Shown: positions 46,064 to 64,000, numbered from the stretch's first letter. The stretch is 64,000 bases of DNA from an uncultured Eubacteriales bacterium (GCA_949288785.1 CASELQ010000002.1:691-64690); one strand, 5' to 3'. Numbers and translations: made by a program. The notes: generated from the sequence alone by a model not told the origin.

Positions 46064-46195
46064 GTTTCACAGGTTCCCTGCAAAACAGCGGCTTTTATTG
46101 CCGACTGTTAAGGTCAAGCGATACGCGGAAAAAATTGTATGTAAAACTTATCTTGTTTTATACATTATTTAATTGAAGTTTTTACGGTGCTCTTT

Positions 46196-46248: not shown

Positions 46249-46341
46249 GTAACCCGCAAGAACGGAAGGTATAACCGTATCCCTTAAATAATATTATCTT
46301 TTATTTGTATGTTTCGCGCAGACGTGCAGATATTGTACAAA

Positions 46342-46466
46342 TATGAATAGAATAATTAAATATTCATAATTTTATGAATAATAAGTGAATATTTGAATAA
46401 AAAATTTTATTATTTATGAAAATATTCATTCAAATGCTTGACAAAAAAACGCGGCGGGAGTATAAT
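46342..46466 (+). promoter_or_regulatory. ARG-box cluster (ArgR/AhrC-type operators) abutting the argG promoter
   Basis: Three TATGAAT/TATGAAA-headed 18-mers start at 46342, 46373 and 46415. The second, TATGAATAATAAGTGAAT, matches the Bacillus ARG box CATGAATAAAAATKCAAK at 14 of 18 positions. Next comes TTGACA (46438), a 17-nt spacer, then TATAAT (46461). Confidence 0.6.
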
Positions 46467-46490
46467 CGAAAAAAACGGTCGGAGGGACTT

Positions 46491-47717: not shown

Positions 47718-47728
47718 GGAATTCATTT

Positions 47729-49117
47729 ATGGCAAAAATGTGGGCGGGGAGGACCGAGGGCCTTCTCGATAAAGACGCGGACGATTTCAATTCGTCCGTA
47801 TCTTTTGATAAAAGGATGTATAAAGAGGATATAGCAGGCTCAAAGGCGCATGCCGCAATGCTTGCCGCATGCGGGATAATTTCCGGGGAGGACGCGAAAA
47901 AGATAACCGAAGGGCTAAACGGCATTCTCAAAGATATAGAGAGCGGCGCACTTTTAATAGAAAACGCCGAGGACGTGCATATGTTCATAGAAGAGCAGCT
48001 GACCGCCCGCATAGGCGAAGCGGGCAAAAAGCTGCACACCGCGCGGAGCCGCAACGACCAGGTGGCGCTGGATCTGCGCCTGTATTTAAGGAACAGGTGC
48101 GGGGAAATATCCGCGCTTATAAAAGCGCTGCTTACCGTGATAAAGGACAAGGCGGAGGAATATAAAACGGCTATAATGCCGGGGTATACCCACTTGCAGC
48201 GCGCACAGCCCGTAACCTTTGCCCACCATCTTCTGGCGTATGCCGAGATGTTCAAAAGGGACGCCGGCAGGATAAAGGACGCGGTTTCCCGCATGAATTA
48301 TTCGCCGCTCGGTTGCTGCGCTTTGGCGGGTACCACGTATAATATCGACAGGCAGATGACCGCCGCCGCGCTCGGGTTTTCGGGCGTTACCGCCAACAGT
48401 ATAGACGGGGTTTCGGACAGGGATTTCTGCGTGGAACTGCTGGCGGCGTTCTCGCTTATCATGACGCACCTTTCCCGTTTTTCGGAAGAGATAATACTCT
48501 GGACTTCGTGGGAGTTTAAGTTTGCCGAACTTTCGGATGCGTTCACGACCGGTTCGTCCATAATGCCGCAGAAAAAAAATTCCGATATGGCGGAACTCGT
48601 CCGCGGCAAGGCGGGCAGGGTATACGGCGACCTTATGGGTACCCTGACCATGCTCAAAGGCCTGCCGCTTGCCTATAACAAGGATATGCAGGAAGATAAG
48701 GAGGCGGTGTTCGACGGGGCGGAAACGGTCATAAAATGCCTTAAAGTTTTTGCGCCTATGGCGGCGTCCTTGCGGGCAAATACCGAAAATATGCGCGCCG
48801 CGGCGGGCAAGGGCTTTATAAACGCCACGGACCTTGCGGACTATCTCACTAAAAAAGGAATACCTTTCCGCACGGCGTATAAGATAGTGGGCGGGATAGT
48901 TGCAAAGTGCATAAAAGAAAACAAAACGCTGGAAGATCTGAGTTTAGAAGAGTATCGCGCCGAGAGCACTGCGTTCGATAAGGACCTTTACGAGAGCATA
49001 GACCTGCTTAACTGCGTGGAGCGCAGGATCTCCGAGGGTGGCGCGGGCAGTGCCTCGGTAAACAAACAGCTTGCGGCATTAGGGGAGTTCATCGCCGATG
49101 AAAAAAATTTTTATTGA
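47729..49117 (+). CDS. argH: argininosuccinate lyase
   Basis: The fumarate-lyase signature GSSIMPQKKNSD and N-terminal MWAGRTEG are present. Confidence 0.95.
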   Translation: MAKMWAGRTEGLLDKDADDFNSSVSFDKRMYKEDIAGSKAHAAMLAACGIISGEDAKKITEGLNGILKDIESGALLIENAEDVHMFIEEQLTARIGEAGKKLHTARSRNDQVALDLRLYLRNRCGEISALIKALLTVIKDKAEEYKTAIMPGYTHLQRAQPVTFAHHLLAYAEMFKRDAGRIKDAVSRMNYSPLGCCALAGTTYNIDRQMTAAALGFSGVTANSIDGVSDRDFCVELLAAFSLIMTHLSRFSEEIILWTSWEFKFAELSDAFTTGSSIMPQKKNSDMAELVRGKAGRVYGDLMGTLTMLKGLPLAYNKDMQEDKEAVFDGAETVIKCLKVFAPMAASLRANTENMRAAAGKGFINATDLADYLTKKGIPFRTAYKIVGGIVAKCIKENKTLEDLSLEEYRAESTAFDKDLYESIDLLNCVERRISEGGAGSASVNKQLAALGEFIADEKNFY

Positions 49118-50021
49118 CGGAAAGTCCGGCACCACGGGGCTGAGGATTGCGGAGAGGCTTGCGGGGCGCAAGGACATAGAGATAATCACACTTTCGGAAG
49201 AGGAACGTAAAAACCCTGCGGCAAAAAAACGGGCGACCGAGGAGAGCGACGTAACTTTTCTCTGCCTGCCGGACGACGCCGCAAGGGAAGCCGTTTCCGC
49301 TTGCGAAAACCCGGATACCGTTATTATAGACGCATCTACCGCGCACCGAACCGAACCGGGCTGGCTTTACGGCTTTCCTGAAATTTACAAGGATTTTGAG
49401 GCGCGTGTGCGCGGCGCAAAGCGCATTGCGGTGCCCGGCTGCCATGCGTGCGGGTTCATAGCGCTGATTAAGCCGCTTGTGGATGCGGGCATAGTGGATA
49501 AAAATGCGGAACTTTGCTGCACTTCGGTTACCGGCTATTCGGGCGGCGGCAAAAAGATGATTGCCGAATACGAGGATGCCGCGCGGGACCCGCTCCTAAA
49601 TTTCCCGCGGCAGTACGGGCTTAATCAGAGCCACAAGCACTTAAAGGAGATGCGCGCGGTAACGGGGCTTAATAATGCTCCCGCCTTTTCGCCGATAGTG
49701 GCGCCCTTTTACAGCGGAATGTGCGTTACCGTGCCCCTTTTCAAAAAGGATATAACGGGCGGCGCCGCAGATATAGAAAAGGTGTATTCGGAACTTTACC
49801 GCGGCAATATAGTGCGGCTGAAAAACCTTTCGGAAAACGGGTTTATATCCGCCGGCGCGCTTGCGGGAAAGGACGGGATGCAGGTATCTGTATTCGGGTG
49901 CGAAGAGCGGATTCTGCTCGCCGCGCGGTACGATAATTTGGGAAAAGGCGCTTCGGGCGCGGCGATAGAGTGCCTTAACTACGTGCTTTCGGTAAAACCC
50001 GAAACGGGGCTTTGCCTGTAA
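49098..50021 (+). CDS. argC: N-acetyl-gamma-glutamyl-phosphate reductase, short (uncommon/type 2) form
   Basis: 307 aa with N-terminal KIFIDGKSGTTGLRI and the active-site PGCHA. It overlaps the argH 3' end by 20 nt. Confidence 0.85.
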   Translation: MKKIFIDGKSGTTGLRIAERLAGRKDIEIITLSEEERKNPAAKKRATEESDVTFLCLPDDAAREAVSACENPDTVIIDASTAHRTEPGWLYGFPEIYKDFEARVRGAKRIAVPGCHACGFIALIKPLVDAGIVDKNAELCCTSVTGYSGGGKKMIAEYEDAARDPLLNFPRQYGLNQSHKHLKEMRAVTGLNNAPAFSPIVAPFYSGMCVTVPLFKKDITGGAADIEKVYSELYRGNIVRLKNLSENGFISAGALAGKDGMQVSVFGCEERILLAARYDNLGKGASGAAIECLNYVLSVKPETGLCL

Positions 50022-50129
50022 ACGGGAAAAAGATTAATGCGGCGCAAGAGTCCGGCGGGCGCAAAGCCCGTGGAAACCGCCGCCGCGGATACAATTTGGA
50101 AATAAAACGGTATAATTTGGAGAAAGGAA

Positions 50130-51344
50130 ATGCAGATCGTAAACGGCGGGGTATGCGCCGCGCGGGGGTTCACCGCGAACGGCATACATTGCGGAATAAG
50201 GAAAAACAAGAGTAAGCGCGACATATCGCTTATATTCAGTGAAAAAGTGGCAAACGCGGCGGCGGTTTACACCACCAACCTCGTGAAAGGCGCGCCGCTT
50301 GTCGTAACGAAACGAAATTTGCAAGACGGAAAGGCGCAGGCGATAATATGCAACAGCGGCAACGCCAACACCTGCAACGCGGGCGGAGAGCAGGTTGCGG
50401 AAAAGATGTGCGAACTCACGGCGGGCGCGCTCAACATATTTGCAAGCAACGTGGTGGTGGCGTCTACCGGCGTGATAGGTCAGCCGCTCGACGTTGCGCC
50501 CATAGCGGCGGGGCTGCCCGAACTTATAGCCGGGCTGTCGGCAAAGGGTTCGGCTTTTGCCGAAGAAGGGATAATGACCACCGACACCAAGCGGAAATCT
50601 TTGGCGGTCAGTTTCAATATCGGCGGCAAAGAATGTAAACTCGGCGGGATAGCAAAGGGTTCCGGGATGATCCACCCCAATATGGCGACCATGCTGGTTT
50701 TTATCACCACGGACTGCGCAATTTCTTCCGCCATGCTCGATAAGGCGCTGTCTACCGACGTGAAAAATACCTTTAATATGATAAGTATAGACGGGGATAC
50801 CTCCACGAACGACATGGTGGTAGTTCTTGCCAACGGTATGGCGGAAAACCCCGAAATCACGGAAGAGGGCGCGGAGTTTTCGGAATTTATGCGTGCGCTC
50901 AACACCGTTACGGTGGGGCTGTGCAGAATGATCGCCGGGGACGGGGAGGGCGCCACAAAACTCCTCGAATGCAGGGTTACGGGCGCCAAGGACGAAGAGA
51001 CCGCAAAACAGGTGGCAAAGTCCGTGATATGTTCTTCCCTCACAAAAGCCGCAATGTTCGGGGCGGACGCCAACTGGGGCAGGGTGCTTTGCGCCATAGG
51101 TTACAGCGGCGCACAAGTGGACGTAAACAAAACGGACGTTGCGTTCACCTCCAAAAAGGGTACCGTTGCGGTGTGCAAAAACGGCGCGGGCGTGCCTTTT
51201 TCCGAGGAAAAAGCAAAGGAAATACTTTCGGAAAACGAAATAATAATAGCGGTGGAACTGCATAGCGGAGACGGTTGCGCCACCGCCTGGGGGTGCGACC
51301 TCACTTACGATTACGTTAAAATAAACGGAGATTACCGCACCTGA
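50130..51344 (+). CDS. argJ: bifunctional glutamate N-acetyltransferase / amino-acid acetyltransferase (ornithine acetyltransferase)
   Basis: The autoproteolytic site HPNMATMLVFITTD is present and the 404-aa length fits. Confidence 0.93.
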   Translation: MQIVNGGVCAARGFTANGIHCGIRKNKSKRDISLIFSEKVANAAAVYTTNLVKGAPLVVTKRNLQDGKAQAIICNSGNANTCNAGGEQVAEKMCELTAGALNIFASNVVVASTGVIGQPLDVAPIAAGLPELIAGLSAKGSAFAEEGIMTTDTKRKSLAVSFNIGGKECKLGGIAKGSGMIHPNMATMLVFITTDCAISSAMLDKALSTDVKNTFNMISIDGDTSTNDMVVVLANGMAENPEITEEGAEFSEFMRALNTVTVGLCRMIAGDGEGATKLLECRVTGAKDEETAKQVAKSVICSSLTKAAMFGADANWGRVLCAIGYSGAQVDVNKTDVAFTSKKGTVAVCKNGAGVPFSEEKAKEILSENEIIIAVELHSGDGCATAWGCDLTYDYVKINGDYRT

Positions 51345-51423
51345 CGTTTAAACGGACAGGCGGCAAAAGTTAAACGGAGCAGGCCGTAAACTTACGGGAA
51401 AAGCGGGCAATAAGGAGAGAAAT

Positions 51424-52278
51424 ATGGAAATAACCAATGCCGAACGGGCAAGCGTGCTGGTGCACGCGCTCCCGTATATAAAATTATACAGCGGCAAGAT
51501 AGTGGTGATAAAATACGGCGGCAGCGCCATGATAGACGAAAAACTTAAAAACCAGGTGATGAAAGACATAGTGCTTTTATCGCTCATAGGTGTAAAGGTA
51601 GTGCTGGTGCACGGCGGCGGGCCGGAGATAACGGCGCTCCTCAATAAGCTTGGTAAAGAGAGCAGGTTTGTGAACGGGCTGAGGGTAACCGATGCGGAGA
51701 CCGCGGAAGTGGTGCAGATGGTGCTTGCCGGCAAGGTAAATAAGAGTCTTGTCAATCATATCGGCGTAAAGGGCGGGTATGCGATAGGGCTTTCAGGGCT
51801 GGACGCAAAGATAATAGAGGCAGAGGTTAAGGACCCGGAGTTAGGCTACGTGGGTAGGATCACCAAAGTAAACGCCGCGCCCATACTGGATCTTTTGGAA
51901 AAGGGATATATCCCGGTAATTTCCACCGTCGCGTGCGACGAGGAGGGGCACGTTTACAACGTGAACGCGGATACGGCGGCCGCACGGATAGCGGAGGAAC
52001 TCAAAGCGGAAAGCCTTATTTCCATGACCGATACGAGCGGCATACTGCGCGATAAGAACGATACTTCTACCCTTATTCCCGTAATAAAGGCGGGGGAGGC
52101 GCAGTCGCTCATAGATTCGGGAATAATCGCCGGCGGCATGATACCCAAGACCGAGTGCTGCGTGAATGCCGTTAAGCACGGGGTGAAACGCGTGTTTATA
52201 ATAGACGGCAGGATACCCCATTCCATAATTATGGAAATGCTTACGGACGAAGGTCTGGGCACGATGTTTGAGGAATGA
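51424..52278 (+). CDS. argB: acetylglutamate kinase
   Basis: The VVIKYGGSAM and VLVHGGGP motifs are present. Confidence 0.93.
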   Translation: MEITNAERASVLVHALPYIKLYSGKIVVIKYGGSAMIDEKLKNQVMKDIVLLSLIGVKVVLVHGGGPEITALLNKLGKESRFVNGLRVTDAETAEVVQMVLAGKVNKSLVNHIGVKGGYAIGLSGLDAKIIEAEVKDPELGYVGRITKVNAAPILDLLEKGYIPVISTVACDEEGHVYNVNADTAAARIAEELKAESLISMTDTSGILRDKNDTSTLIPVIKAGEAQSLIDSGIIAGGMIPKTECCVNAVKHGVKRVFIIDGRIPHSIIMEMLTDEGLGTMFEE

Positions 52279-52279
52279 T

Positions 52280-53443
52280 ATGGACATTTTTGAAACAGAT
52301 AAAAAATACGTTGCGGGCACTTACGCCCGCTTCCCCGTGGAGATAGTAAGGGGCAAAGGTTCGCTGTGTTATGACGGCGCGGGCAAGGAATACGTTGACA
52401 TGGGCGCGGGTATAGCCGTGAATATTTTCGGCTTTTGCGACGAGGAGTGGATAGCAGCCGTCGAAAAGCAGCTGCATGCCTTTCAGCACACTTCAAACCT
52501 TTATTATCAGGCGCCGTGCGCCCGCCTTGCGGAAGAACTGTGCAAGAGAACGGGAATGAAAAAGGTATTCTTTTCCAACTCCGGGGCGGAGGCCAACGAG
52601 TGCGCCATAAAGGCGGCAAGGCTGTACGCGGCGGAAAATAAGGGAGAGGAGTATTATAACGTAATAACCCTTAAAGGCAGTTTTCACGGGAGGACTTTAA
52701 CCACCCTTGCGGCAACCGGGCAGGAAGTGTTCCATAAATACTTTCAGCCCTTAACTCCCGGGTTTTTATACGCCCAGCCGAATAACGCGGAAAGCGTGAA
52801 AAAACTCATTGACGGGCATAAGGTCGCTGCCGTTATGTTAGAGCCCGTTTTGGGCGAAGGCGGGGTAATACCGCTTGAACAAAGTTTTGTAAAAGAGGTG
52901 TTTGAATACGCCTCTGAAAACGGCGTTCTTATCATAGTGGACGAAGTGCAGACGGGTAACGGCAGAACGGGCGCGCTTTACGGATATATGAATTTCGGCG
53001 TTTTGCCGGACATAGTAACAACTGCAAAAGGGCTGGGCGGCGGGCTGCCGATAGGGGCAACCATGCTCGGAGAAAAGGTGAAAAACGTATTTTCTGCCGG
53101 CATGCACGGCTCCACTTTCGGCGGCAATCCGGTGGCGGCGGCTGGCGCGCTTTCGGTTATAAACAGGCTGAACGATAAATTTTTAAGCGAGGTAAGAGAG
53201 AAATCGGCTTACATAAAAACCCGCCTTGATAATATGAAAGGAGTGAAAGGCGTTACCGGCACGGGGCTTATTTTAGGGGTGGAAACGGATATGCCCGCAG
53301 GGGATGCGGTACTTAAATGTATAGAGGGCGGCGCGCTGTTTTTAACCGCAAAAAATAAAATAAGGCTGCTGCCGGCGCTCAATATAAGTTATGAACTTAT
53401 AGACCGCGCATTATCAGTTCTTGAAAAGGTTTTGGAGGGTTGA
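52280..53443 (+). CDS. argD: acetylornithine aminotransferase
   Basis: Class-III aminotransferase with [13 protein letters not shown] and the PLP Lys in [12 protein letters not shown]. The ATG follows GAGGAA. Confidence 0.9.
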
Positions 53444-53445
53444 TT

Positions 53446-54432
53446 ATGACAGACATAAAAGGCAGGGATTTCCTTAAACTGCTTGATTTTTCCGCAAGCG
53501 AGATAGAATATTTAATAGACCTTGCCGCAGATTTTAAGGCAAAGAAAAAGGCGGGCATATCCCACCGCATGCACGAGGGGAAAAACATTGCGCTCATATT
53601 TGAAAAGACCAGCACGCGCACCCGCTGCGCCTTCGAGGTGGCTGCGCACGACCTTGGCATGAACGCAACTTATCTTGACCCTTCGGGCAGCCAGATAGGC
53701 AAGAAGGAAAGCATAGCGGATACCGCCAGGGTGCTCTCTTCCATGTATGACGGGATAGAGTACCGCGGGTTCGGACAGGAGATCGTTGAAGAGCTTGCGC
53801 ACTATTCTAAGGTGCCCGTATGGAACGGGCTTACGAACGAATTTCACCCCACCCAGATACTTGCGGACTTTCTCACCGTAAAAGAGCATTTCGGGAAACT
53901 GAAAGGAATAAAGCTCGTCTATATGGGAGACGCGCGATTCAATATGGGCGATTCTTTAATGGTGGGCTGCGCCAAGATGGGGCTTGATTTTACCGCCTGC
54001 GCGCCCCGAAATTACTTCCCCGACAGGGCGCTTATTTCGGAGTGCGAAAAGATAGCGGCAGGTTCCGGCGCAACCCTTTCTTTCGAGACGGACGTTGCTA
54101 AGGCGGTAAAGGGAGCGGACGTTATATATACCGATATATGGGTATCCATGGGAGAGCCCGAAAAGGTGTGGGAAGAGCGCATTGCGGCGCTGTCTCCCTA
54201 TCAGGTCAATTCTGAGGTGATGAGCCTTGCGGGAGACAACGCGGTGTTTATGCACTGCCTGCCTTCCTATCACGACATGAAGACGGCGATAGGTAAAGAG
54301 ATGTGCGAAAAGTTCGGGCGCACCGCCATGGAGGTTACGGACGAGGTGTTTGAAAGCCCCCGGTCATTGGTATTTAAAGAGGCGGAAAACCGCATGCACA
54401 CTATAAAGGCGGTCATGGCGGCAACGCTGTAA
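53446..54432 (+). CDS. argF: ornithine carbamoyltransferase
   Basis: Motifs [20 protein letters not shown]-like DIWVSMG and HCLP are present. Confidence 0.93.
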
Positions 54433-54438
54433 AAACCA

Positions 54439-54467
54439 CGCCCCGCCCGCAATTTGCGGGCGGGGCG
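54439..54467 (+). terminator. GC-rich hairpin after argF
   Basis: CGCCCCGCCCGCAA-T-TTGCGGGCGGGGCG. It is near-identical in design to the hairpin at 38257. Confidence 0.55.
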
Positions 54468-54567
54468 CCGAATAATAGAAGGAAAATTAAAAAAGAAAAT
54501 TGTAAGTTATAAGAATAATAAAAAATAAACAATTTTTAAACAAATATCCATAAGTAAAAAATATACT

Positions 54568-54585
54568 TATGAATAAAAATTCGAA
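54568..54585 (+). promoter_or_regulatory. ARG box upstream of carA
   Basis: TATGAATAAAAATTCGAA matches CATGAATAAAAATKCAAK at 15 of 18 positions. It is overlapped by a perfect inverted repeat CATAAGTA-N7-TACTTATG (54548..54570). Confidence 0.6.
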
Positions 54586-54823
54586 TATTAAAACGATTGA
54601 ATAAACGACGTAAATATTATACAATAGTAAAAATACCGTAATAATTAAAGAGTAAAAGTTATCATAATAAAAGGTATTTCGCGCGGATATATTCCGCCGA
54701 TAAATGCGGCAATTCGAGAGAGCTGCAGTCTGCCCGCCGCCAATGCAGCGGCAAAAGCAGCGGCGGGGAGTTTCGGGAGAGAGGCCGGGCAAAGGCCCGA
54801 TACGTTCACAAAGGAGCGGATGT

Positions 54824-55960
54824 ATGAAAAGATATCTAATTTTGGAAAACGGCGAAGTGTTCGAGGGGGAAGCGATAGGCGCCCCGGGCGAGCAGGCGGG
54901 GGAACTTGTGTTCACCACCAATATGTGCGGATATATGGAAACGCTTACAGACCCTTCATATTTCGGGCAGATAGTAATTCAGACCTTTCCCATGATAGGC
55001 AATTACGGCAGCATCCCGCAGGACGCGGAGGGGGAGTGCGCGGTGAGCGGATACGTGGTAAAAGAACTGTGCAAAGAGCCCTCTAACTTCCGTTGCGTTT
55101 CTTCGCTTAACGACTTTTTAATTGAGTGCGGGGTGTGCGGCATAGCGGGCGTGGACACGCGCGAACTTACCAAAATTTTAAGGGAACGCGGAGTGATGAA
55201 CGCCGCAATATCGGACAAACCCTCTTATGACCTGAACGCGCTTAAAAATTTCAGCATAAAAAACGCCGTAAAGAGCGTTACTGGCAAAGATATAATAACC
55301 TATAATCCGGGCGGGCAATTTTCGGAAAAAGGAGTTATTTCGGGCGGCGATAAAGAGAGCGCCGGTAAAAAAAGCCGGGCGGGTCAGCCCGCAGGAGGGA
55401 ATGCCCCCGTAAAGATAGCGCTTATAGATTACGGAGTAAAGAGAAACATAATAAGGGAATTACTCCGCCGCGGTTGCGAGGTAACCGTTTTCCCCGCAGG
55501 CGCGACGGATAAGGAAATACTGTCTTACGAGCCGCAAGGGATAATGCTCTCGAACGGGCCGGGGGATCCTGCCGAAAACACCGAGCAGGTGGAAACACTT
55601 AAAAAACTCTTAGGCATTCGTCCGATATTCGGGATATGCTTAGGCCACCAGCTTTTGGCGCTTGCAAACGGCGGAAAGACCCGCAAATTAAAGTACGGGC
55701 ACCGCGGGGCAAACCAGCCCGCCAAGAACTTGGAAAGCGGGCGCACGTACATCACCAGCCAGAATCACGGTTACGAGGTGATTGCGGATTCGGTAAAAAA
55801 CGGTATCCTTACCTACGTAAACGCCAACGACGGGTCCTGCGAGGGTATGAGTTACCCCGGGATAAACGCCTTTTCGGTACAGTTTCATCCGGAGGCAGCC
55901 GCAGGCCCCAAGGATACGGCGTTTTTGTTCGACGAGTTTTTAAAAAGAGTGAAGGAGTGA
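54824..55960 (+). CDS. carA: carbamoyl-phosphate synthase small (glutaminase) subunit
   Basis: Catalytic GICLGHQLL and HGYE are present. The start is at the ATG after AAGGAG. A ~20-aa low-complexity insert (SGGDKESAGKKSRAGQPAGGNAP) lies between the N-domain and the GATase domain. Confidence 0.93.
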   Translation: MKRYLILENGEVFEGEAIGAPGEQAGELVFTTNMCGYMETLTDPSYFGQIVIQTFPMIGNYGSIPQDAEGECAVSGYVVKELCKEPSNFRCVSSLNDFLIECGVCGIAGVDTRELTKILRERGVMNAAISDKPSYDLNALKNFSIKNAVKSVTGKDIITYNPGGQFSEKGVISGGDKESAGKKSRAGQPAGGNAPVKIALIDYGVKRNIIRELLRRGCEVTVFPAGATDKEILSYEPQGIMLSNGPGDPAENTEQVETLKKLLGIRPIFGICLGHQLLALANGGKTRKLKYGHRGANQPAKNLESGRTYITSQNHGYEVIADSVKNGILTYVNANDGSCEGMSYPGINAFSVQFHPEAAAGPKDTAFLFDEFLKRVKE

Positions 55961-55964
55961 GATC

Positions 55965-58900
55965 ATGCCGCGCGATTACAGTATAAAAAAGGTGCTGGTC
56001 ATAGGTTCGGGGCCCATAGTCATAGGGCAGGCCGCCGAGTTCGATTACGCGGGCGCACAGGCGTGCCGGGTATTAAAGGCCGAGGGCGTGAACGTGGTGC
56101 TTGTCAATTCCAACCCCGCCACCATCATGACCGACAAGGAGATGGCGGACGAGATATATCTGGAGCCGCTTACCGAGGAGACCTTAAAGCGCATTATAGA
56201 AAAGGAAAAACCCGATTCCCTGCTTGCGGGGCTGGGCGGGCAGACGGGGCTGACCCTTGCCATGCAGCTGTCGCGCAGCGGGTTTCTGAAAAAGGCGGGC
56301 GTAAGACTCATAGGTTCCAATACAGAGGCGATAGACAAAGCCGAGGACAGGGAACTTTTCAAAAAGACCATGCAGGAGATAGGCGAGCCCGTCATCCCTT
56401 CCGACATAGCGCACACGGTGGAAGAGGCTTTATGCGCGGCGAGAAAAATCGGATATCCCGTCATCATCCGCCCCGCGTTTACGCTGGGGGGATACGGCGG
56501 CGGGGTGGCGTATTCCGAAGAGCAGTTGCGTTCCGCCGCCGCCGTGGGGCTGGAGGCATCTCCCATAACCCAGATACTGGTGGAAAAGTATATTTACGGC
56601 TGGAAGGAAATAGAGTTCGAGACCATGAGAGACGGGGCGGGCAACGTTATCGCCGTGTGTTCCATGGAGAACGTGGATCCCGTAGGCGTGCACACGGGGG
56701 ACAGCATTGTGGCGGCGCCGGCGCTCACACTCTCCGATAAAGAATATCAGATGCTGAGGAGCGCCTCGTTAAACATCATAACCGCGCTCGGCATAGTGGG
56801 CGGGTGCAACTGCCAGTTCGCGCTGGATCCCGAAAGTTTTCAGTACGCCGTTATAGAAGTAAACCCCAGGGTTTCGCGCTCCTCGGCGCTTGCTTCCAAA
56901 GCCACGGGCTATCCCATAGCCAAGACCGCCGCAAAGATTGCCTTAGGGTATAATCTGGACGAAATAAAGAACGAAGTTACGGGCAGGACGTGCGCCTGTT
57001 TCGAGCCCGCGCTCGATTACGTTGTGGTAAAGTTCCCCAAGTGGCCGTTCGATAAGTTTGCGGGCGCAAGCAGGAATCTTGGCACACAGATGAAGGCCAC
57101 CGGCGAAGTGATGGCGATAGGCGAAAACTTTGAGAGCGCGCTCATGCGTGCGGTGCGCGGCGCCGAAATCGGGATGGATACCTTAAATAAGGAGTTCGAT
57201 AAACCGATAACCGAAAAGGACCTTGAAATAACCGACGATTTGCGCCTGTTCCGCGTGTATGCGGCATTAAAGGCGGGCATAAGCGTTGAAACGATAAACA
57301 AGATCACCCGAATAGACGTATTTTTCCTGTATAAACTTAAAAACCTTGCGGACACGGAAGCGCGGCTGAAAACCGAACCGCTTACAAAAGAGCTGTATTA
57401 CGCCGCCAAAAAACAGGGCTACCCGGACGGGGCGATAGAAAAACTGAGCGGCACAAAGCCCGCATATCCCGATAAAACGGTATTCAAGATGGTGGACACC
57501 TGCGCCGCCGAGTTCGACGCGGAAACCCCGTATTTTTATCCCGTATGCGGAGATTATTGCGACGCGGCAAGGTTTGCCCGCTCGGGAAAGCCGGTTATAA
57601 TGGTAATAGGCTCGGGCCCCATAAGGATAGGCCAGGGCATAGAATTCGACTATTCTTCGGTACACTGCGTATTCACGCTTAAAAAGCTGGGGTACGACGT
57701 GGTGATCGTAAACAACAACCCGGAAACGGTATCCACCGATTACGACACGGCGGACAGGCTGTATTTTTCGCCCCTCTGCCCGGAGGACGTTATGAGCGTC
57801 ATCCGCGTGGAAAAGCCCATAGGCGTGGTGGTGGCGTTCGGCGGGCAGACGGCGATAAAACTCACCGCGTTTTTAGACCGCAAGGGCATAAAGATACTGG
57901 GGACTTCCGCCGCGGGGATAGACCTGGCGGAGGACAGGGAAAAGTTCGATGCGCTCTTAGGTTCTCACGGTTTCCGCCGCCCGCAGGGCATGAGTGTAAC
58001 CGACTTAAAACAGGCGCTTGCCGCCGCGAACAAACTGGGGTACCCCGTGCTGCTTAGGCCCTCTTACGTCATCGGCGGGCAGAACATGCAGATAGTGCAT
58101 AACGACGAAGAAGTTACCGTATACATGGAGCGCATATTAAAGGGTGGCATAGAAAACCCCGTGCTTGTAGATAAATATATGCGCGGCCCGGAACTGGAAG
58201 TGGACGTCATTTCGGACGGGCAGGACGTGCTTATCCCGGGGATAATGCAGCACATAGAGCGGGCGGGGGTGCACAGCGGGGACTCCATTGCCGTGTATCC
58301 GCCCTACTCCATAACCGACACCATGGTGGAAAAGATAGTGGAGTGCTCCACCGCCCTTGCATTGGATCTCGGGACCAAGGGGCTTGTCAATATTCAGTAC
58401 CTTATTTACGGCGGGGAACTTTACGTAATAGAAGTAAACCCGCGCGCCTCCCGCACGGTGCCCTATATCAGCAAGGTAACGGGCGTGGAGATGGTGGACA
58501 TTGCCTCCCGCGTGATGCTGGGAGAAACTTTAAAAGAGATGGGCGTAAGTACGGGGCTTTATAAAATACCGCCCTATTACGCGGTGAAGGTGCCCGTTTT
58601 CTCCTTTGAAAAGCTGGGGGACGTGAACTCTTATTTAGGGCCCGAGATGAAATCCACGGGCGAAGTTTTGGGCATAGGCAGAACGCGGGACGAAGCGCTG
58701 TATAAAGGGCTTGTAGCGTCCGGGCTGAAAGTGAGAACCACCGCGCACGGCGAACACGTGGGAGTGTATCTTTCGGTAGACAATCACGACTATCCCGAAA
58801 TGATAAGCCTTGCCGACAAACTGAACAGCCTTAACATAAAGATGTACGCCACGGAAGAGACTGCGGCGGAGATAAAGCGGCTGGGGATACGGGTGGAAAA

Positions 58901-59996
58901 GGCGCCCGGCATGGATGAAAAGGAGCGGCTTTTCGACCTGCTTTCGAGCGGAAAGATAGACTATATAGTGTATACGGGCGCGCTGTTTGACAGGACGGTG
59001 GAGCAGTTCATAACGCTGAGGAGAAAGGCGTTATCTCTCGGGATAGCCTGTTTTACCTCCCTCGATACCGCACTGGCGCTTGCGGATATAATAGGCAGCC
59101 GATTTACTCAGTACAACACGGAGCTTGTAAACTTAAACGCCATGCGAAAAGAGCGGCGCAAAATACCCTTCGTCAAGATGGAGGGGTGCGGCAACGACTA
59201 TATATTTTTCGATAACGTGGGCGGCGAGCTGGAAGGCGCGGAATCGCTGTGCGTGTCGCTTTGCGCGCCGCATTACGGCATAGGCGCTTACGGAATAGTG
59301 CTCATGGAAAAATCGGACTGCGCGGACGTTAAGATGAAACTCTTTAATAAAGACGGTTCGAGCGGCGCCGCGGGCGGCAACGCCATACGCTGCGTGGCAA
59401 AATACGTTTACGACAATAATATGGTTCAAAAGCCGGAAATAACCGTGGAAACGGACGGCGGAATAAGGAAACTGCGGGTGTTCACGCGGGGCGGCAAGGT
59501 AACTTTCGTTTCGGTAAATATGGGGCAGCCCTCTTTCGAAGCGGCTTTGCTCCCCGCCGCCACAAAGGAGAAAACGCTGATAGACTACTCGCTGAAAGCC
59601 GGAAACGGATATTACAGGGTAACCTGCCTTTCTGTGGGCAACCCGCACTGCGTGGTGTTCTGTGAGGACGTGAACGGGCTGAACTTAAAAAAGCTGGGGC
59701 CGCTGTTTGAAAGCAACCCGCTTTTCCCGGACAGGATAAACACGGAATTTGTAAAGATAGTAAACCCCACGACAATGCGCATGCGGGTGTACGAGCGCGG
59801 CAACGGCGAAACCACCGCCTGCGGTTCGGGCGCGTGCGCCGCGGTGGCGGCGGCGGTTAAAAAAGGCCTTATTAAACCCGATACCGAAATAACCGTAAAA
59901 CTGAACGGCGGAGATTTAACAGTGAATTTAACCGAAAACGGCGTGATTTTAACGGGGGATGCAAATATCGTGTTTACCGGGGAGATAGAGGTATAG
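55965..59996 (+). CDS. carB: carbamoyl-phosphate synthase large subunit fused in frame to diaminopimelate epimerase (CarB::DapF, 1343 aa)
   Basis: Residues 1 to ~1064 are a full CarB (GSGPIVIGQAAEFDYAG; GSGPIRIGQGIEFDYS; MGS-like domain). Residues ~1066-1343 (nt 59160..59993) carry DapF motifs (KMEGCGNDYIFFD, GGNAIRC, GNPHCVVF, ERGNGETTACGSGA). There is no stop or frameshift at the junction. Confidence 0.9.
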   Translation: MPRDYSIKKVLVIGSGPIVIGQAAEFDYAGAQACRVLKAEGVNVVLVNSNPATIMTDKEMADEIYLEPLTEETLKRIIEKEKPDSLLAGLGGQTGLTLAMQLSRSGFLKKAGVRLIGSNTEAIDKAEDRELFKKTMQEIGEPVIPSDIAHTVEEALCAARKIGYPVIIRPAFTLGGYGGGVAYSEEQLRSAAAVGLEASPITQILVEKYIYGWKEIEFETMRDGAGNVIAVCSMENVDPVGVHTGDSIVAAPALTLSDKEYQMLRSASLNIITALGIVGGCNCQFALDPESFQYAVIEVNPRVSRSSALASKATGYPIAKTAAKIALGYNLDEIKNEVTGRTCACFEPALDYVVVKFPKWPFDKFAGASRNLGTQMKATGEVMAIGENFESALMRAVRGAEIGMDTLNKEFDKPITEKDLEITDDLRLFRVYAALKAGISVETINKITRIDVFFLYKLKNLADTEARLKTEPLTKELYYAAKKQGYPDGAIEKLSGTKPAYPDKTVFKMVDTCAAEFDAETPYFYPVCGDYCDAARFARSGKPVIMVIGSGPIRIGQGIEFDYSSVHCVFTLKKLGYDVVIVNNNPETVSTDYDTADRLYFSPLCPEDVMSVIRVEKPIGVVVAFGGQTAIKLTAFLDRKGIKILGTSAAGIDLAEDREKFDALLGSHGFRRPQGMSVTDLKQALAAANKLGYPVLLRPSYVIGGQNMQIVHNDEEVTVYMERILKGGIENPVLVDKYMRGPELEVDVISDGQDVLIPGIMQHIERAGVHSGDSIAVYPPYSITDTMVEKIVECSTALALDLGTKGLVNIQYLIYGGELYVIEVNPRASRTVPYISKVTGVEMVDIASRVMLGETLKEMGVSTGLYKIPPYYAVKVPVFSFEKLGDVNSYLGPEMKSTGEVLGIGRTRDEALYKGLVASGLKVRTTAHGEHVGVYLSVDNHDYPEMISLADKLNSLNIKMYATEETAAEIKRLGIRVEKAPGMDEKERLFDLLSSGKIDYIVYTGALFDRTVEQFITLRRKALSLGIACFTSLDTALALADIIGSRFTQYNTELVNLNAMRKERRKIPFVKMEGCGNDYIFFDNVGGELEGAESLCVSLCAPHYGIGAYGIVLMEKSDCADVKMKLFNKDGSSGAAGGNAIRCVAKYVYDNNMVQKPEITVETDGGIRKLRVFTRGGKVTFVSVNMGQPSFEAALLPAATKEKTLIDYSLKAGNGYYRVTCLSVGNPHCVVFCEDVNGLNLKKLGPLFESNPLFPDRINTEFVKIVNPTTMRMRVYERGNGETTACGSGACAAVAAAVKKGLIKPDTEITVKLNGGDLTVNLTENGVILTGDANIVFTGEIEV

Positions 59997-60073
59997 CCGG
60001 TTTATACGAGGGTAAAAGCGCGCAAAAGCTCGCCTGCACGGTTAAACGGAGTTAAAAGAAAGTTTTTGTAAAA

Positions 60074-60104
60074 AGTTTCCGCTTTGCGGCGGGAACTTTT
60101 TTTA
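60074..60104 (+). terminator. rho-independent terminator after carB::dapF
   Basis: AGTTTCCGC-TTTGCG-GCGGGAACT (one G-U pair) runs into TTTTTTT. Confidence 0.7.
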
Positions 60105-60109
60105 TTCGC

Positions 60110-60139
60110 TTGACAAATGCCGCGCGAACACTTTATACT
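60110..60139 (+). promoter_or_regulatory. candidate promoter of the MarR-family gene
   Basis: TTGACA, an 18-nt spacer, then TATACT. Confidence 0.35.
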
Positions 60140-60178
60140 TAAATAAAAGTAATATGTTGCTTTTTCGGGGAGATGCCA

Positions 60179-60613
60179 ATGAGAACGGGAAAAGAAAATT
60201 TTGTGCTGGGCGCCATATCGCTCGTCTCAAACGAACTTAACACCTTCGGGGAGGACTGTCTTGAAGAGATCACCTTCAAGCAATGGTTCCTGCTTATGAT
60301 GATATCCAAGATGGAAAAGGGAGAAAAGAGCGTAAATCTTATAGCGGACTTTACGGGCACATCCCGCCAGAACGTAAAAAAAATGCTTACTCCGCTTGAA
60401 AAAAAGGGGTTTGTTTCAATAACGGGCTCGGAAAACGACGGCAGGGCTTTAAGCGTGGAACTCACCGACAAGACTTATAAATACTTTTTCGATCACGACG
60501 GGAGGATAGCAAAGGCCACCGAGCGGCTTTTTTCCGCCTTTTCGGATGCCGAACTCGATCTTTTCGCCATGTCTTTCAAAAAACTCATAGCCGCCCTCGA
60601 TGAGGAAAAATAA
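60179..60613 (+). CDS. MarR family transcriptional regulator
   Basis: A winged-HTH pattern is present (ITFKQWFLLMMI...IADFTGTSRQNVKKMLTPLEKKGFV). The second ATG (60179) is preferred because GGGGAG lies 6 nt upstream; the first ATG is at 60173. Confidence 0.75.
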   Translation: MRTGKENFVLGAISLVSNELNTFGEDCLEEITFKQWFLLMMISKMEKGEKSVNLIADFTGTSRQNVKKMLTPLEKKGFVSITGSENDGRALSVELTDKTYKYFFDHDGRIAKATERLFSAFSDAELDLFAMSFKKLIAALDEEK

Positions 60614-60656
60614 TATGCAATAAGTTGACTAAAACGTTTTTTTATGCGTTTATACT

Positions 60657-60682
60657 GCGCCCGCACCGAAAGGTGCGGGCGC
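60657..60682. terminator. GC hairpin between convergent MarR (+) and LacI (-) genes
   Basis: GCGCCCGCACC-GAAA-GGTGCGGGCGC. Confidence 0.5.
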
Positions 60683-60769
60683 AAACGTATGGCGGAAAAA
60701 ACAAAAACAAAAACAGTCAGCAGGCAGAAAAACTGTATAAAGCCGCCGGCATTTACGTCTTTAAGGGTT

Positions 60770-61753
60770 TTAATTGCCGGAGATGTTTTTTACCGAGTTT
60801 CTCAGCACAAGAGTGCTTTTAACGGTAACGCTCTGGAACACGTTGAAGGCGCGGTTTTCTATCTTTTTAAATAGAATGGCGGCGGCAATCGAGTTCATCT
60901 TTTCGGTATTGGAGCTTATCGTGGTAAGGGATATGTGCTCGTAAGAGGCGGTCTTTATATCGTCTATCCCTATAACGGACATATCCTCCGGGCACTTTAA
61001 GCCGTGTTTTTCCATGCAGTGAATGGCGCCTATTGCAATATCGTCGTACGCAGCCAAAAGCGCGGTGGGCATATTGCCGCTCTTTATCATGCGTTCCATG
61101 CCGTTATAGCCCGCTTCTTCAAAGCGGGTGCTTTCCACGGCTATGTATTCGGGATAGGTGGAAACGCCCAGCCGTTCGGTCGCCTTGTAAAACAGGCGGA
61201 GTTTGTCTTCCGTGTGCCTGTCGCCGATAAAGCCTATTTTTTTATGCCCGTTGCGGCAGAATTCTCCTATTGCTTCGGCAATGCCGGTGTAAAAATCGGT
61301 ATTCACGGTGTCCGCATACGGGTTTTCGGAAAAGGGGTTTAAGTAGATCATCGGAACGGGGGTGTGCTTTTTCGCCTGAGATCTTCCTTCTATCACTATT
61401 ATTCCGTCCGCCCGCCCGCACGAGTAAAAGGCAGTAAGTTCCTGTTCGGTTTTAAGCGAAAAGCCGGTAAGGGATACCGTAACCGTGGCGTTTTTCTTTT
61501 CAAGCGTGCGGTTGAGGTCGGACACGATAGAGGCGTAATATGCGTCCGCCGTGTCCGGGCATAGTATCGCTATTATCTTTTTGCCGTATTTTATCTTATT
61601 GTATTTATAGTAGCACCCCAGTTCTTCCGCCTTTTTTACGATGGCGGCGCGCGTTTCGCGGCTTACTTCTCTGCTGCCGGAAAAGGCCTTTGACAGGGTG
61701 GAAACGGAGTATCCCGTTATTTTGGAAAGTTCTTTCAGGGTCATTTTAAGCAC
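60770..61753 (-). CDS. LacI family transcriptional regulator
   Basis: An N-terminal HTH (TLKELSKITGYSVSTLSKAFSG) is followed by a periplasmic-binding-protein-like sugar-binding fold. Confidence 0.85.
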   Translation of the reverse strand: MLKMTLKELSKITGYSVSTLSKAFSGSREVSRETRAAIVKKAEELGCYYKYNKIKYGKKIIAILCPDTADAYYASIVSDLNRTLEKKNATVTVSLTGFSLKTEQELTAFYSCGRADGIIVIEGRSQAKKHTPVPMIYLNPFSENPYADTVNTDFYTGIAEAIGEFCRNGHKKIGFIGDRHTEDKLRLFYKATERLGVSTYPEYIAVESTRFEEAGYNGMERMIKSGNMPTALLAAYDDIAIGAIHCMEKHGLKCPEDMSVIGIDDIKTASYEHISLTTISSNTEKMNSIAAAILFKKIENRAFNVFQSVTVKSTLVLRNSVKNISGN

Positions 61754-61847
61754 TCACGCCCTTTTGTAAACAGCGCCGGTTCGCTTTGCCCGCCCGCTTT
61801 TGTATCGGTATATGTATTACGGGACCGGTAGCCGGTATTTTTATTAA

Positions 61848-61876
61848 ATTGTAACATAATTAAGTAAAGTTTGCAA
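61848..61876 (-). promoter_or_regulatory. candidate promoter of the LacI-family gene
   Basis: On the minus strand: TTGCAA (61876..61871), a 17-nt spacer, then TACAAT (61853..61848). Confidence 0.4.
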
Positions 61877-62018
61877 GCCGTTATAAGCGCCGCGCCTGCG
61901 TTTTTTACGAAATTTTTTCGTTGTTTTTTCAAAAATGCGGATTTGCCGCATAGGGACAGCGAGGGGAAGCGGTTTATCCCTCGCGTGCGGAGCGGGATAT
62001 ATCACGGCCGGTAAGGTT

Positions 62019-62088
62019 ATCTGCCTTAACCGTGGATAATATGTTAGCGTGGCGGGACGCAGGCATCTGTCTTAACCGGGGATATATT
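62019..62088. repeat. imperfect 24-bp direct repeat ATCTG(C/T)CTTAACCG(T/G)GGATA(A/T)TAT at 62019..62042 and 62065..62088
   Basis: Read directly; 21 of 24 positions are identical. GGGATATAT also recurs at 61994 and 62078. Confidence 0.75.
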
Positions 62089-62111
62089 TACAAAGCAGGG
62101 TACAGGCATAA

Positions 62112-62137
62112 AAGCGGGCAATCATTTTTGCCCGCTT
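62112..62137 (-). terminator. rho-independent terminator of the ger operon (stop codon of gerxC lies in the loop)
   Basis: On the minus strand: AAGCGGGCAA-AAATGA-TTGCCCGCTT, then TTATGCC. Confidence 0.65.
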
Positions 62138-63405
62138 ACCGTAACCGATACGTGCTCGGTTAAAAACGCCGCGAAATTTTCTTTATACTTTTCAAACTCC
62201 CTGTGATTATGGCGGTAGACCTGCCTTAAAATGTCCAGAAAGTCGCAATCGGTAAGTTTTTCCTGCTGTATAAGGCTTGTTATCCCCTCGGAAATTTTCT
62301 TTTCCGCCGCTTCCGCAACCTCTTTCGGCAGGGGGCTTAAAGAAGAATAGGAAGTGGACGACGTCTCCGCGTTCTTATCGCTTATCTTGCAATAAAGTTT
62401 TAAGTCTATATAGGCGTGCAGTCCGTCATCGCCCGCGGTTACTTTTATTTTCGGTTTGTTCTTTATTACGGTAACAAGCACATTACAGTCTTCGCCTTCA
62501 AAGCTTACGTTTTCAAGTTCTATCGTGGTGCCGGTTATATTGTCTTTTAACGCGTTGAACACCAGCGTTTCAAAAGGGGAGAGCGTGCCCACGGGCAGCC
62601 CGTTTTTGAATAAAACCGTGTTGTTTGCGGTAAACACCGTTTCTTTTTGGGTGCTTTCGCCCGAGCCCGAACCGCCCGCCCCGCTTTCGGAGCCGCCGGC
62701 AGAGCCGCTTTGGCTTTCGCCGCCCGAACTTTCGCCGCCAGAACTTCCGCCGCCCGAACTTTCGCCGCCAGAACTTCCGCCGCCCGAACTTCCGCCGTCC
62801 TCCGCCGTTTTTTTCATGGTGATGAGCGGCATATAGCCGGAGGCGGTTACGTCGTAATACTTCATGCAGAAAGTTTTTATGGCTATGCTTGCAATGTCTG
62901 AATCGAAGCCCGGGTTTTTAAACAGCACCTTTTGCAGTGCGAACGCGGGCGTTTTATCGAGGGACGTGGCGGCGGTAAGGATGTCCTTTGCCTTGTCTTC
63001 GGCAAGCACCGCCATGGCGGAGCCCTGAATCCTTAAAGTCTGCGCAAAATAGTCAAGTACCTTTATGGCGTTTTCTTCCGCAACTTTTTTTCCCAGTATT
63101 ACCATGTTGCAAAACGAAAGATGCGGGTACCAGCCGGTGGAATCGCCTATTTGCTTTATGGCGGCGCCCACCGTAACCCCTTTGCCTTCTATTTCCACGT
63201 GGCGGTTTCCGGTGCCCGCGCCCGCGTCCTCCGGCACGGCTATCTGCGCGGTTACAAGGTATTCGCCGCTTTCGTCGATATCCACCCCCAGCGCGGTTAT
63301 GATAGCCGTTTTTTCTATATCTATAAATGCGAAATCGTTTCCGAAAAACAACAGCGCCGCCGCGAATATCGCAAACAAAAGCGCCTTAATCTTGGTATAG
63401 TTCAT
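62122..63405 (-). CDS. Ger(x)C family spore germination protein with internal Gly/Ser-rich insert, no lipobox Cys
   Basis: A signal-anchor N-terminus is followed by DIEKTAIITALGVDID, typical of the GerAC/GerKC N-domain, and a C-terminal Spore_GerAC-like region. Its position after a GerB-type permease fits. GGAGAAAAG RBS. Confidence 0.75.
   Translation of the reverse strand: MNYTKIKALLFAIFAAALLFFGNDFAFIDIEKTAIITALGVDIDESGEYLVTAQIAVPEDAGAGTGNRHVEIEGKGVTVGAAIKQIGDSTGWYPHLSFCNMVILGKKVAEENAIKVLDYFAQTLRIQGSAMAVLAEDKAKDILTAATSLDKTPAFALQKVLFKNPGFDSDIASIAIKTFCMKYYDVTASGYMPLITMKKTAEDGGSSGGGSSGGESSGGGSSGGESSGGESQSGSAGGSESGAGGSGSGESTQKETVFTANNTVLFKNGLPVGTLSPFETLVFNALKDNITGTTIELENVSFEGEDCNVLVTVIKNKPKIKVTAGDDGLHAYIDLKLYCKISDKNAETSSTSYSSLSPLPKEVAEAAEKKISEGITSLIQQEKLTDCDFLDILRQVYRHNHREFEKYKENFAAFLTEHVSVTVSGQK
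62721..62797. repeat. perfect 30-bp tandem repeat x2 plus partial third copy inside gerxC
   Basis: CGCCCGAACTTTCGCCGCCAGAACTTCCGC occurs at 62721..62750 and 62751..62780, then CGCCCGAACTTCCGCCG. On the minus strand it encodes GGSSGGESSG repeats. Confidence 0.9.
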
Positions 63406-64000
63406 CTGTCTTTTCTCCGTGTTTTTTGGTTAAAACCCCTTTCTTGCGGGCAATAAGGCATATGAAAACGGGCAGCACGTTCGCCATGAGTATAAAAAAA
63501 GCGGCGGCGTATCGGGTTATGAATTTTTCCAGCCCGTAAACATTTCTGTCCAGCAGCAGAACGGCGGCAAAGCAAAGCGCGCACACCGCAAGCGGCAGAA
63601 TTTTAAGGTTTTTTATACGGGTCATGCGGTTTAAGATCTCGCCCGCAAAATACAGGGGCAGTGTAAGGCTTACTATGCCCGAAAACAGCAGCAGAAAGGT
63701 GGCAAGATAATCTATTCTGCCCAGGTTGTTTATCACCGCCGAGTATTTTGATATTTCGTTTATGGCAAACCGCTGGCGGAAGGCGATGGAGGAAAAAGTG
63801 CCGTAAAAAATAACCATGAACAGCACTGCGGCAAGCCCCGCACCCGCGTAAGAAACGAATATCTTAATACCGTCTTTTTTCTTTCGCTCGAATCTGCCCG
63901 TAACGAACAGAAAATACATACAGTCCCCGAACCAAGGCGCGGCGGTATAGGCGCCGCGCAGCACGGGCTCGGCGCCGTTTATGCACACGGGAAGCAGGGC
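63386..64000 (-). CDS. Ger(x)B-type spore germination permease (APC-like), C-terminal ~200 aa; 5' end outside window
   Basis: Multiple hydrophobic TM segments are present. The frame is open to the window edge, and the gene overlaps gerxC by 20 nt, as in ger operons. Confidence 0.65.
   Translation of the reverse strand, partial: ALLPVCINGAEPVLRGAYTAAPWFGDCMYFLFVTGRFERKKKDGIKIFVSYAGAGLAAVLFMVIFYGTFSSIAFRQRFAINEISKYSAVINNLGRIDYLATFLLLFSGIVSLTLPLYFAGEILNRMTRIKNLKILPLAVCALCFAAVLLLDRNVYGLEKFITRYAAAFFILMANVLPVFICLIARKKGVLTKKHGEKTDELYQD

Follow-up and report, generated by a model that had tools for sequence, protein, structure and literature searches.

The MGS-like allosteric domain of Escherichia coli CarAB, a carbamoyl-phosphate synthase (CPSase), binds uridine or inosine monophosphate (UMP/IMP) and ornithine. 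The arginine-specific CPSase of the Bacillus type is encoded in an operon of the order argCJBD-carAB-argF and is not known to carry an appended domain. For diaminopimelate (DAP) epimerase, DapF, a non-catalytic role has a precedent in the E. coli DapF–RppH complex, where DapF is bound to another protein and activates it (PMC6061791). Here, we describe a gene that joins the two enzymes. In the window, the whole 64,000-nucleotide stretch of DNA analysed from an uncultured Eubacteriales bacterium (GCA_949288785.1, CASELQ010000002.1:691-64690), a CPSase large-subunit gene (carB) at the end of an arginine operon runs in frame into a DapF-fold module that has a glycine in place of the first catalytic cysteine. 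On the sequence evidence, we regard it as an evenly balanced proposition that this module is an epimerase-dead, ligand-binding and/or dimerising or scaffolding pseudo-DapF domain of an arginine-specific CPSase. The fusion has the following parts, numbered from the first letter of the window.

55965..59996, + strand: fusion open reading frame (ORF) carB::dapF, 1343 amino acids plus stop codon, uninterrupted
55965..59144, + strand: complete CarB part, residues 1–1060 (Pfam, NCBIfam and alignment to E. coli CarB)
59145..59162, + strand: connector RKERRK, residues 1061–1066, short and basic (read from the sequence)
59163..59993, + strand: DapF-fold module, residues 1067–1343 (TIGR00652, phmmer, AlphaFold2 and Foldseek)
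59373..59375, + strand: Gly1137, codon GGC, aligned with the catalytic Cys73 found in E. coli and Haemophilus influenzae DapF
59820..59822, + strand: Cys1286, the second catalytic cysteine (C217 equivalent), in ...ETTACGSGACA

The open 1343-residue frame, matched at full length by both a CarB and a DapF profile, bears out a preliminary description of this locus that had reported an in-frame CarB::DapF fusion with a complete CarB part and a six-residue linker. Residues 1–1045 match positions 1–1048 of 1058 in the CarB equivalog NF003671 (1400 bits), and Pfam identifies CPSase_L_D1, D2 and D3 together with MGS. Both ATP-grasp halves are present, the oligomerisation domain spans residues 419–494 and the MGS-like allosteric domain spans residues 945–1031. 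The fused CarB aligns to residues 779–1060 of the 1073 residues of E. coli CarB, and its tail, YNTELVNLNAM, is close in length to the 13 residues that remain in the E. coli protein; because the alignment and the tail length show a complete CarB, the DapF module is joined by RKERRK alone. Residues 1068–1341 match the DapF equivalog TIGR00652 at positions 2–268 of 270, over both halves of the epimerase, with 267 bits against a cutoff of 114.65. Across the family the junction follows the pattern ...NTELV[DN][IL]NxMR-x5-FxKMxGxG[ND]DY, in which the connector is constant in length and variable in sequence. An AlphaFold2 model of residues 901–1343 has a mean predicted local distance difference test score (pLDDT) of 91 and a predicted template modelling score (pTM) of 0.83, and the junction, at pLDDT ~79–84, is predicted to be ordered.

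The preliminary description had also held that DapF appears to be made only as a fusion, and our analysis agrees. No promoter-like site lies upstream of the module, and no Shine–Dalgarno sequence stands at a usable spacing before the ATG at 59142 or the ATG at 59178, the latter of which belongs to the conserved DapF-internal motif 'KM' and is not a start. With both a promoter-like site and a well-spaced Shine–Dalgarno sequence not found, a free DapF from an internal start was rejected, and the module is predicted to be made solely as part of the fusion.

The module is less complete than first described. In a phmmer alignment with Bacillus anthracis DapF (2otn; E = 7e-65), 'gksCgnglrc' pairs with 'gaaGgnairc', which places Gly1137 at the position of C73. 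The cysteine of GGNAIRC, previously read as the first catalytic residue of a 'complete' DapF with every hallmark, is instead the equivalent of the non-catalytic C79 of E. coli; the second catalytic cysteine was correctly recognised and is C1286. Position 73 is Ala in 107, Gly in 17 and Ser in 2 of the 126 closest relatives, and Cys in none, while C217 is retained in 125 of them. Gly1137 is common to all six members of the window protein's 90% cluster, which come from independent assemblies; since the cluster agrees and 126/126 relatives have Ala, Gly or Ser here, the glycine is no sequencing error.

The loss of C73 is expected to be severe for epimerisation. In DapF-type racemases, exchange of Cys for Ser leaves less than 0.1% of the activity (PMC8225329), and the activity of E. 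coli DapF C73A/C217A is undetectable (PMC6061791). By this comparison, the window's module would be dead as a two-base DAP epimerase. With Ala or Gly at position 73 throughout the clade, the fusion should therefore not be taken for a CPSase plus an active DAP epimerase, and because one catalytic cysteine is gone the module is probably a binding or scaffolding domain, not the cell's DapF.

Around this one position, the active site is preserved. N64, N157, N190, E208, R209, G74, N75, G218 and S/T219 are near-invariant among the 126 relatives. The DAP contacts N11, N64, N157, N190, E208 and R209 are all present in the window's module, and these contacts are at least 96% conserved across the family except at position 11 (N70/D56). 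As described in PMC8225329, hydrogen bonds from N64, N157 and N190 and a salt bridge from R209 hold the distal carboxylate of DAP, E208 touches the distal amino group, and a DapF-derived Dab racemase of changed substrate has replaced every one of these contact residues. The helix N-terminus motifs GN and CG[ST]G are likewise retained, and the aromatic equivalent to Y268, which E. coli DapF requires for dimerisation (PMC6061791), is Phe or Tyr in 315 of 318 modules. The closest Foldseek match to the module is a ligand-bound DapF (9mro_A; template modelling score 0.92, root-mean-square deviation 1.7 Å), 2otn_A is also matched (E = 2e-35), and the two-domain DapF fold is present. More distant fold neighbours are trans-3-hydroxy-L-proline dehydratase, PhzF and methylitaconate isomerase.

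We considered whether the site had been rebuilt. No active-site position besides 73 is newly fixed in the window's clade, and a clade-specific remodelling was rejected on this ground. A catalytic cysteine relocated to position 9, 76 or 79 was rejected as well: canonical DapFs that keep C73 often have Cys9, and 23 of the 126 members lack cysteine at all three positions. In the window, position 9 is C1075 (59187–59189) and position 11 is N1077 (59193–59195). Members of the C73-less clade carry either Cys9 with Asn11 or Thr9 with Asp11, and the N11D exchange is confined to Cys-less modules.

Searched for in related genomes, the junction recurs widely. The exact window protein is represented in public collections by the six-member 90% cluster, on contigs of up to 206 kb. 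A protein search with the last 443 amino acids of the fusion returned, among the matches listed, 120 at 50–56% identity, all with MGS and DAP_epimerase domains, and more than 240 metagenomic homologues span MGS and DapF. A scan of species-representative genomes with a 343-amino-acid query across the junction gave 112 relatives, 80 of which were kept, and nearly all of these 80 loci align with the query over its whole length. The fusion is found in at least 80 species genomes of Evtepia, Candidatus Borkfalkia, Oscillospiraceae, Candidatus Enterenecus, Candidatus Scatosoma and others; the cultured isolate Evtepia gabavorous KLE1738 carries the same junction, and an identical 1340-amino-acid E. 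gabavorous protein occurs on at least 1000 contigs (NCBI, JGI, ENA and Logan). Since the junction recurs across genomes, the fusion is not an artefact. Of the 80 loci, 59 have a reading frame of 1300 amino acids or more, 19 have a frame that runs on to the contig edge and two have one that is interrupted, both times inside carB; the DapF module is full length and unbroken in every one. Matches of 450–770 amino acids, candidates for genuinely short MGS–DapF proteins, were rejected as products of contigs broken inside carB, probably because two carB paralogs confound assembly. As in a Rosetta-stone pair, the two proteins are fused in independent genomes and exist elsewhere as stand-alone DapFs and unfused CarB.

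A few matches have other architectures. P0016 (722 amino acids, 10 members) joins an N-terminal part of CarA (CPSase_sm and a partial GATase) directly to MGS and DapF, with none of the CarB synthetase body between them; a deletion or a chimeric assembly may account for it. P0183, P0196, P0217 and P0272 (687–742 amino acids) have a Cys-intact DapF behind another, unrelated N-terminal part of ~400 amino acids. The N-terminal parts of P0183 and P0272, the two that were scanned, have no Pfam match at 1e-5; the tail of that of P0196 is aminotransferase-like, which may indicate DapL–DapF fusions.

We searched 1.84 billion representatives exhaustively with the module. The nearest stand-alone DapFs are ~40–49% identical to it and keep both cysteines, as do some CarB fusions, such as P0130, a 1349-residue protein with full CarB, MGS and DapF. 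Relatives of P0130, whose source names are Treponema, Spirochaetes, Syntrophomonadaceae, Chitinivibrionia, Ruminococcus and Oscillospiraceae, vary at both catalytic positions (C80/G18/S16/A4/F1 at 73; C104/S10/A5/T1 at 217), and the binding residues are invariant among them. In a pooled set of 434 distinct complete modules, 111 of the 113 stand-alone DapFs have the catalytic cysteine pair intact, compared with 79 of the 309 that are fused. A neighbour-joining tree rooted on E. coli DapF gathers 308 of the 309 fused modules into one clade of 313 leaves, a grouping that implies a single ancient fusion. Within this clade, parsimony counts about 11 changes in the presence of C73 and about 7 in that of C217, and the states at 73/217 differ by lineage: G/C in Treponema, S/S in Spirochaetes, S/A in Syntrophomonadaceae and A/C in Evtepia and Borkfalkia.

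The Cys-less modules remain conserved. The ratio of module to MGS divergence is 0.80 in Cys-less fusions and 1.02 in Cys-intact fusions, and 27% of the columns of the Cys-less module are at least 95% conserved versus 16% in the adjacent MGS. Module divergence is almost equal in the two groups (0.38–0.40 in Cys-less and 0.355 in Cys-intact lineages). Judged by these measures, the Cys-less module is under strong purifying selection and is not decaying. C73 is lost and the rest of the module is conserved, with the loss recurrent in the fused clade only, as would be expected of a pseudoenzyme.

The allosteric domain to which the module is attached has also changed. K954, T974, T977 and K993 constitute what we take to be the nucleotide effector site of the E. 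coli allosteric domain, in which K954 and K993 are presumably the ligands of the effector's phosphate in the E. coli CarB structures. The fused CarB of the window retains T974 and T977 and has Y943 (58791–58793) for K954 and G982 (58908–58910) for K993, while the unfused carB paralog in the same window keeps both effector lysines. Loss of these lysines as a trait of all fused proteins was rejected, for Cys-intact fusions keep them (K954 in 76/79, K993 in 79/79); Cys-less fusions retain K954 in 73/239 and K993 in 64/239. Effector-lysine erosion therefore correlates with loss of the catalytic cysteine across fusions, in a correlation that is phylogenetically non-independent. As a separate observation, a cysteine in the tail of the fused CarB (...GIACFTSLDTA..., ~59046..59048) is nearly invariant across the fused family; it sits at Y1040 of E. 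coli CarB, in the ornithine-site region, where the unfused paralog has Phe.

These patterns are consistent with the following model. A single fusion event would have attached a catalytically competent DapF to CPSase, for a reason independent of epimerisation, and the fusion would then have been spread or inherited across several anaerobe lineages. Catalysis would later have been lost in many of these, including the window's, without loss of the fold, the ligand cleft or the dimer surface. The modules of the window's clade have lost the C73 general base and retain the closed substrate cleft, all the residues that grip DAP and the dimer aromatic. A non-catalytic role is then the likeliest: the domain would take up DAP or a near relative that shares its L-amino-acid end (such as lysine, ornithine or citrulline), or form dimers, or do both, and through the rigid junction it would influence the assembly or activity of CPSase. 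A regulatory or scaffolding role of this kind would be compatible with the coupling or regulation through the allosteric-domain attachment that the preliminary description had proposed. Routes to meso-DAP that bypass DapF are common: the Ddh route occurs in 643 of 2856 genomes (PMC9026213), and DapF2 offers another (GapMind preprint). A non-catalytic role is plausible because of the DapF–RppH precedent and because such DapF-independent routes are common in gut bacteria.

Several points weigh against the pseudo-DapF reading. Both cysteines are kept in 79 of the 309 fused modules, which may simply be active DapF there, and in genomes with the fusion an absence of any other DapF, DapF2 or Ddh would require an active module. 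Structural constraints could in part explain why the binding residues are conserved, and a pTM value without a map of predicted aligned error is weak evidence for a fixed MGS–DapF interface. The counts of fused and stand-alone modules come from searches seeded by two queries, and the neighbour-joining tree is simple and approximate. We also know of no physiological logic for DAP sensing by an arginine-specific CPSase.

A more specific version of the model, to which we give a lower probability, is that a DapF-derived sensor closes on DAP or a related L-amino acid, for instance lysine, ornithine or citrulline, and allosterically controls or dimerises CPSase, replacing the eroded nucleotide-effector site. 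If true, this would make the module the first DapF pseudoenzyme and would reveal a new form of CPSase regulation that links arginine synthesis to cell-wall or lysine precursor status.

Alternatively, the module could be a neofunctionalised one-base enzyme, using C217 alone to carry out different chemistry on DAP or on a compound of the arginine pathway that has the same L-amino-acid end, for example a stereospecific protonation or deprotonation, an elimination or an isomerisation. C217 and its helix N-terminus motif are retained in the window's clade, the module is under strong purifying selection, and the fold family includes one-base enzymes, with the dehydratase, PhzF and methylitaconate isomerase as distant Foldseek neighbours. 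Arylmalonate decarboxylase offers a parallel, as a Gly/Cys derivative of two-Cys racemases, and the arginine-operon context suits a substrate such as ornithine or citrulline. We nevertheless consider this unlikely. No active-site position apart from 73 is re-fixed, which argues against new chemistry, whereas switches of substrate or chemistry in this family replace contact residues. C217 or both cysteines are lost in other fused lineages, a pattern that better fits dispensable catalysis, and the arginine operon is missing no candidate reaction.

It is quite unlikely that the fusion is a bifunctional enzyme whose module serves as the cell's DAP epimerase, with C217 and, in the place of C73, some other group (water, Cys9/Thr9 or Asp11, for instance). 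The full-length profile score far over the cutoff, the retention of the whole DAP-binding site with C217 and the strong purifying selection would all suit such an enzyme; the Cys9/Asn11 and Thr9/Asp11 covariation hints at coupling near the active site, and the Cys-intact fused relatives are probably active. Yet Ala or Gly at position 73 can serve as neither acid nor base, even Cys-to-Ser mutants fall below 0.1% activity and the E. coli double mutant is inactive. Nor does Cys9 compensate, because canonical DapFs with C73 have it too; the 23 of 126 members without Cys at 9, 76 and 79 point the same way, and some fused lineages have lost both catalytic cysteines (S/S, S/A).

That the module is a neutral relic, left when a dapF beside carB lost the intervening stop and since dragged along as a redundant, decaying domain, strikes us as very improbable. 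The repeated loss of catalytic residues, the common DapF-independent DAP routes and the eroded effector lysines of the adjacent allosteric domain in the Cys-less group would all fit such a relic. Against it, the module is intact in 80/80 species loci, both broken frames lie inside carB and the junction does not vary in length. The module is more conserved than MGS, its divergence is near that of the Cys-intact lineages, and its binding residues are invariant. Finally, an assembly or sequencing artefact, a lost stop or frameshift at 59100..59250, has in its favour the a priori oddity of the fusion alone and is virtually discounted, being refuted by the junction in at least 80 species genomes including isolate KLE1738, by the identical Evtepia protein on at least 1000 contigs and by the metagenomic homologues, more than 240 in number, that extend across MGS and DapF.

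The pseudo-DapF reading assigns the module to an arginine-specific CPSase, and the genomic neighbourhood supplies the reason. The genes upstream of the fusion, and the paralogous carB, are as follows.

46416..47717, + strand: argG (NCBIfam equivalog)
47570..49117, + strand: argH (NCBIfam equivalog)
49098..50021, + strand: argC (NCBIfam equivalog)
50130..51344, + strand: argJ (NCBIfam equivalog)
51424..52278, + strand: argB (NCBIfam equivalog)
52268..53443, + strand: argD (NCBIfam equivalog)
53440..54432, + strand: argF (NCBIfam equivalog)
54704..55960, + strand: carA, CPSase small (glutaminase) subunit (NF009475, 424 bits; Pfam CPSase_sm_chain and GATase)
6595..9873, + strand: unfused paralogous carB of the pyrimidine cluster, ending at the normal position

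The carA gene ends 4 nt upstream of the fusion ORF, which closes the operon argG-H-C-J-B-D-F-carA-carB::dapF; as the last gene of an arginine operon, a setting that the preliminary description had missed, it encodes the arginine-specific CPSase. The ORF starts are mechanical, and those of argG, argH and carA precede the first profile-matched residue by ~28–56 codons. An overlap of ~150 nt exists between the argG and argH ORFs, whose true starts are probably later, and the true start of carA may also be later because its profile match opens at residue 41. The same genome thus holds an arginine-operon carB::dapF and a separate carB in a pyrimidine cluster, the latter stopping at 9873, where the preliminary description had placed its normal end.

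This context is shared by relatives. The order argC-J-B-D-F-carA-carB::dapF is found in 29 related loci and is that of the Borkfalkia-type loci, Evtepia reads glnA-carA-carB::dapF, and in GCA_050950425.1 the Cys-intact P0130 belongs to a pair, carA-carB::dapF. In every related locus with sufficient upstream sequence, carA comes before the fusion. No DAP or lysine genes flank the fusion in the Borkfalkia-type, Evtepia or P0130 loci. A second DapF homologue was found neither in the 64-kb window nor in the 80 loci, within ~10 kb on either side of the match.

Downstream of the fusion, a MarR-family regulator (60110..60613) has its own strong promoter-like site (TTGACA-18-TATACT) and is conserved downstream in the closest relative, L001 (11200..11625). 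A LacI-type regulator in divergent orientation and the spore-germination gene GerxC also lie downstream, and the host is therefore a spore-forming member of the Clostridia. The pyrimidine cluster (5423..14200) comprises pyrC, carB, pyrK, pyrD, pyrF, an ORF at 12194..12892 that has no Pfam match at 1e-12, and pyrB. Its carB has no adjoining carA, and the sole carA within the 64 kb is the one at 54704..55960, so that one CarA must serve the two large subunits unless a further carA is located elsewhere. An Rfam search of the whole window (1..64000) at the gathering threshold gave no match at all, and so detected no riboswitch, T-box or small RNA near the arg and pyr operons.

The fusion is already catalogued by automatic annotation, under names that imply an active DapF, and its missing cysteine appears to be unrecognised. 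UniRef names the protein 'Multifunctional fusion protein' and NCBI 'carbamoyl-phosphate synthase large subunit' or 'diaminopimelate epimerase, partial', and for Cys-less modules the name "diaminopimelate epimerase" is probably misleading. Our literature search returned no paper describing a carB::dapF fusion or the missing cysteine, and no description of the cell-wall type of the fusion-bearing genera. Profile-based pipelines may credit Evtepia, Borkfalkia and Oscillospiraceae with a DapF step of which the protein is probably incapable, and wrong credit of this kind would affect predictions of lysine and peptidoglycan auxotrophy for abundant gut Clostridia. For enzyme evolution, a fusion that arose once, long ago, and whose catalytic cysteines were then lost repeatedly and independently in different lineages, with the ligand cleft fully retained, would provide a clean natural example of the non-catalytic conversion of an enzyme domain. 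For CPSase, the conserved domain appended to the allosteric domain points to a form of regulation or assembly absent from the E. coli and Bacillus paradigms.

Compared with known systems, the module shares with canonical DapF (EC 5.1.1.7; TIGR00652/PF01678; 2otn, 9mro, 2gke, 4ijz) the two-lobed fold, C217, the GN and CG[ST]G motifs, N64/N157/N190/E208/R209 and the dimer aromatic. Unlike canonical DapF, it has Gly at C73 (Ala or Gly in the clade) and is never free-standing, being covalently attached to CarB with no internal start evident. The CarB part has the same complete domain order as E. coli CarAB (1bxr/1jdb), with carA immediately upstream, but the fusion carries an extra 277-residue DapF-fold domain past the natural C terminus, has Tyr and Gly at K954 and K993, and lies in an arginine operon, the second carB, which is unfused, being part of the pyrimidine cluster. 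Two CPSase large subunits per genome, one in the arginine operon and one among the pyr genes, are also a feature of the Bacillus type, from whose operon the window's order argG-H-C-J-B-D-F-carA-carB differs. In the E. coli DapF–RppH complex (PMC6061791, PMC4227774), the DapF fold acts on another enzyme by contact, apart from its epimerase chemistry; that complex is non-covalent, its DapF is still an active epimerase and its partner is an RNA pyrophosphohydrolase rather than CPSase. In trans-3-hydroxy-L-proline dehydratase (Cys/Thr, of the proline-racemase family) and PhzF, a member of the catalytic pair is lost and the fold retained, as in the module. The active sites of these degenerate relatives of the racemase fold are remodelled for new substrates, whereas the DAP site of the window's module is otherwise unchanged.

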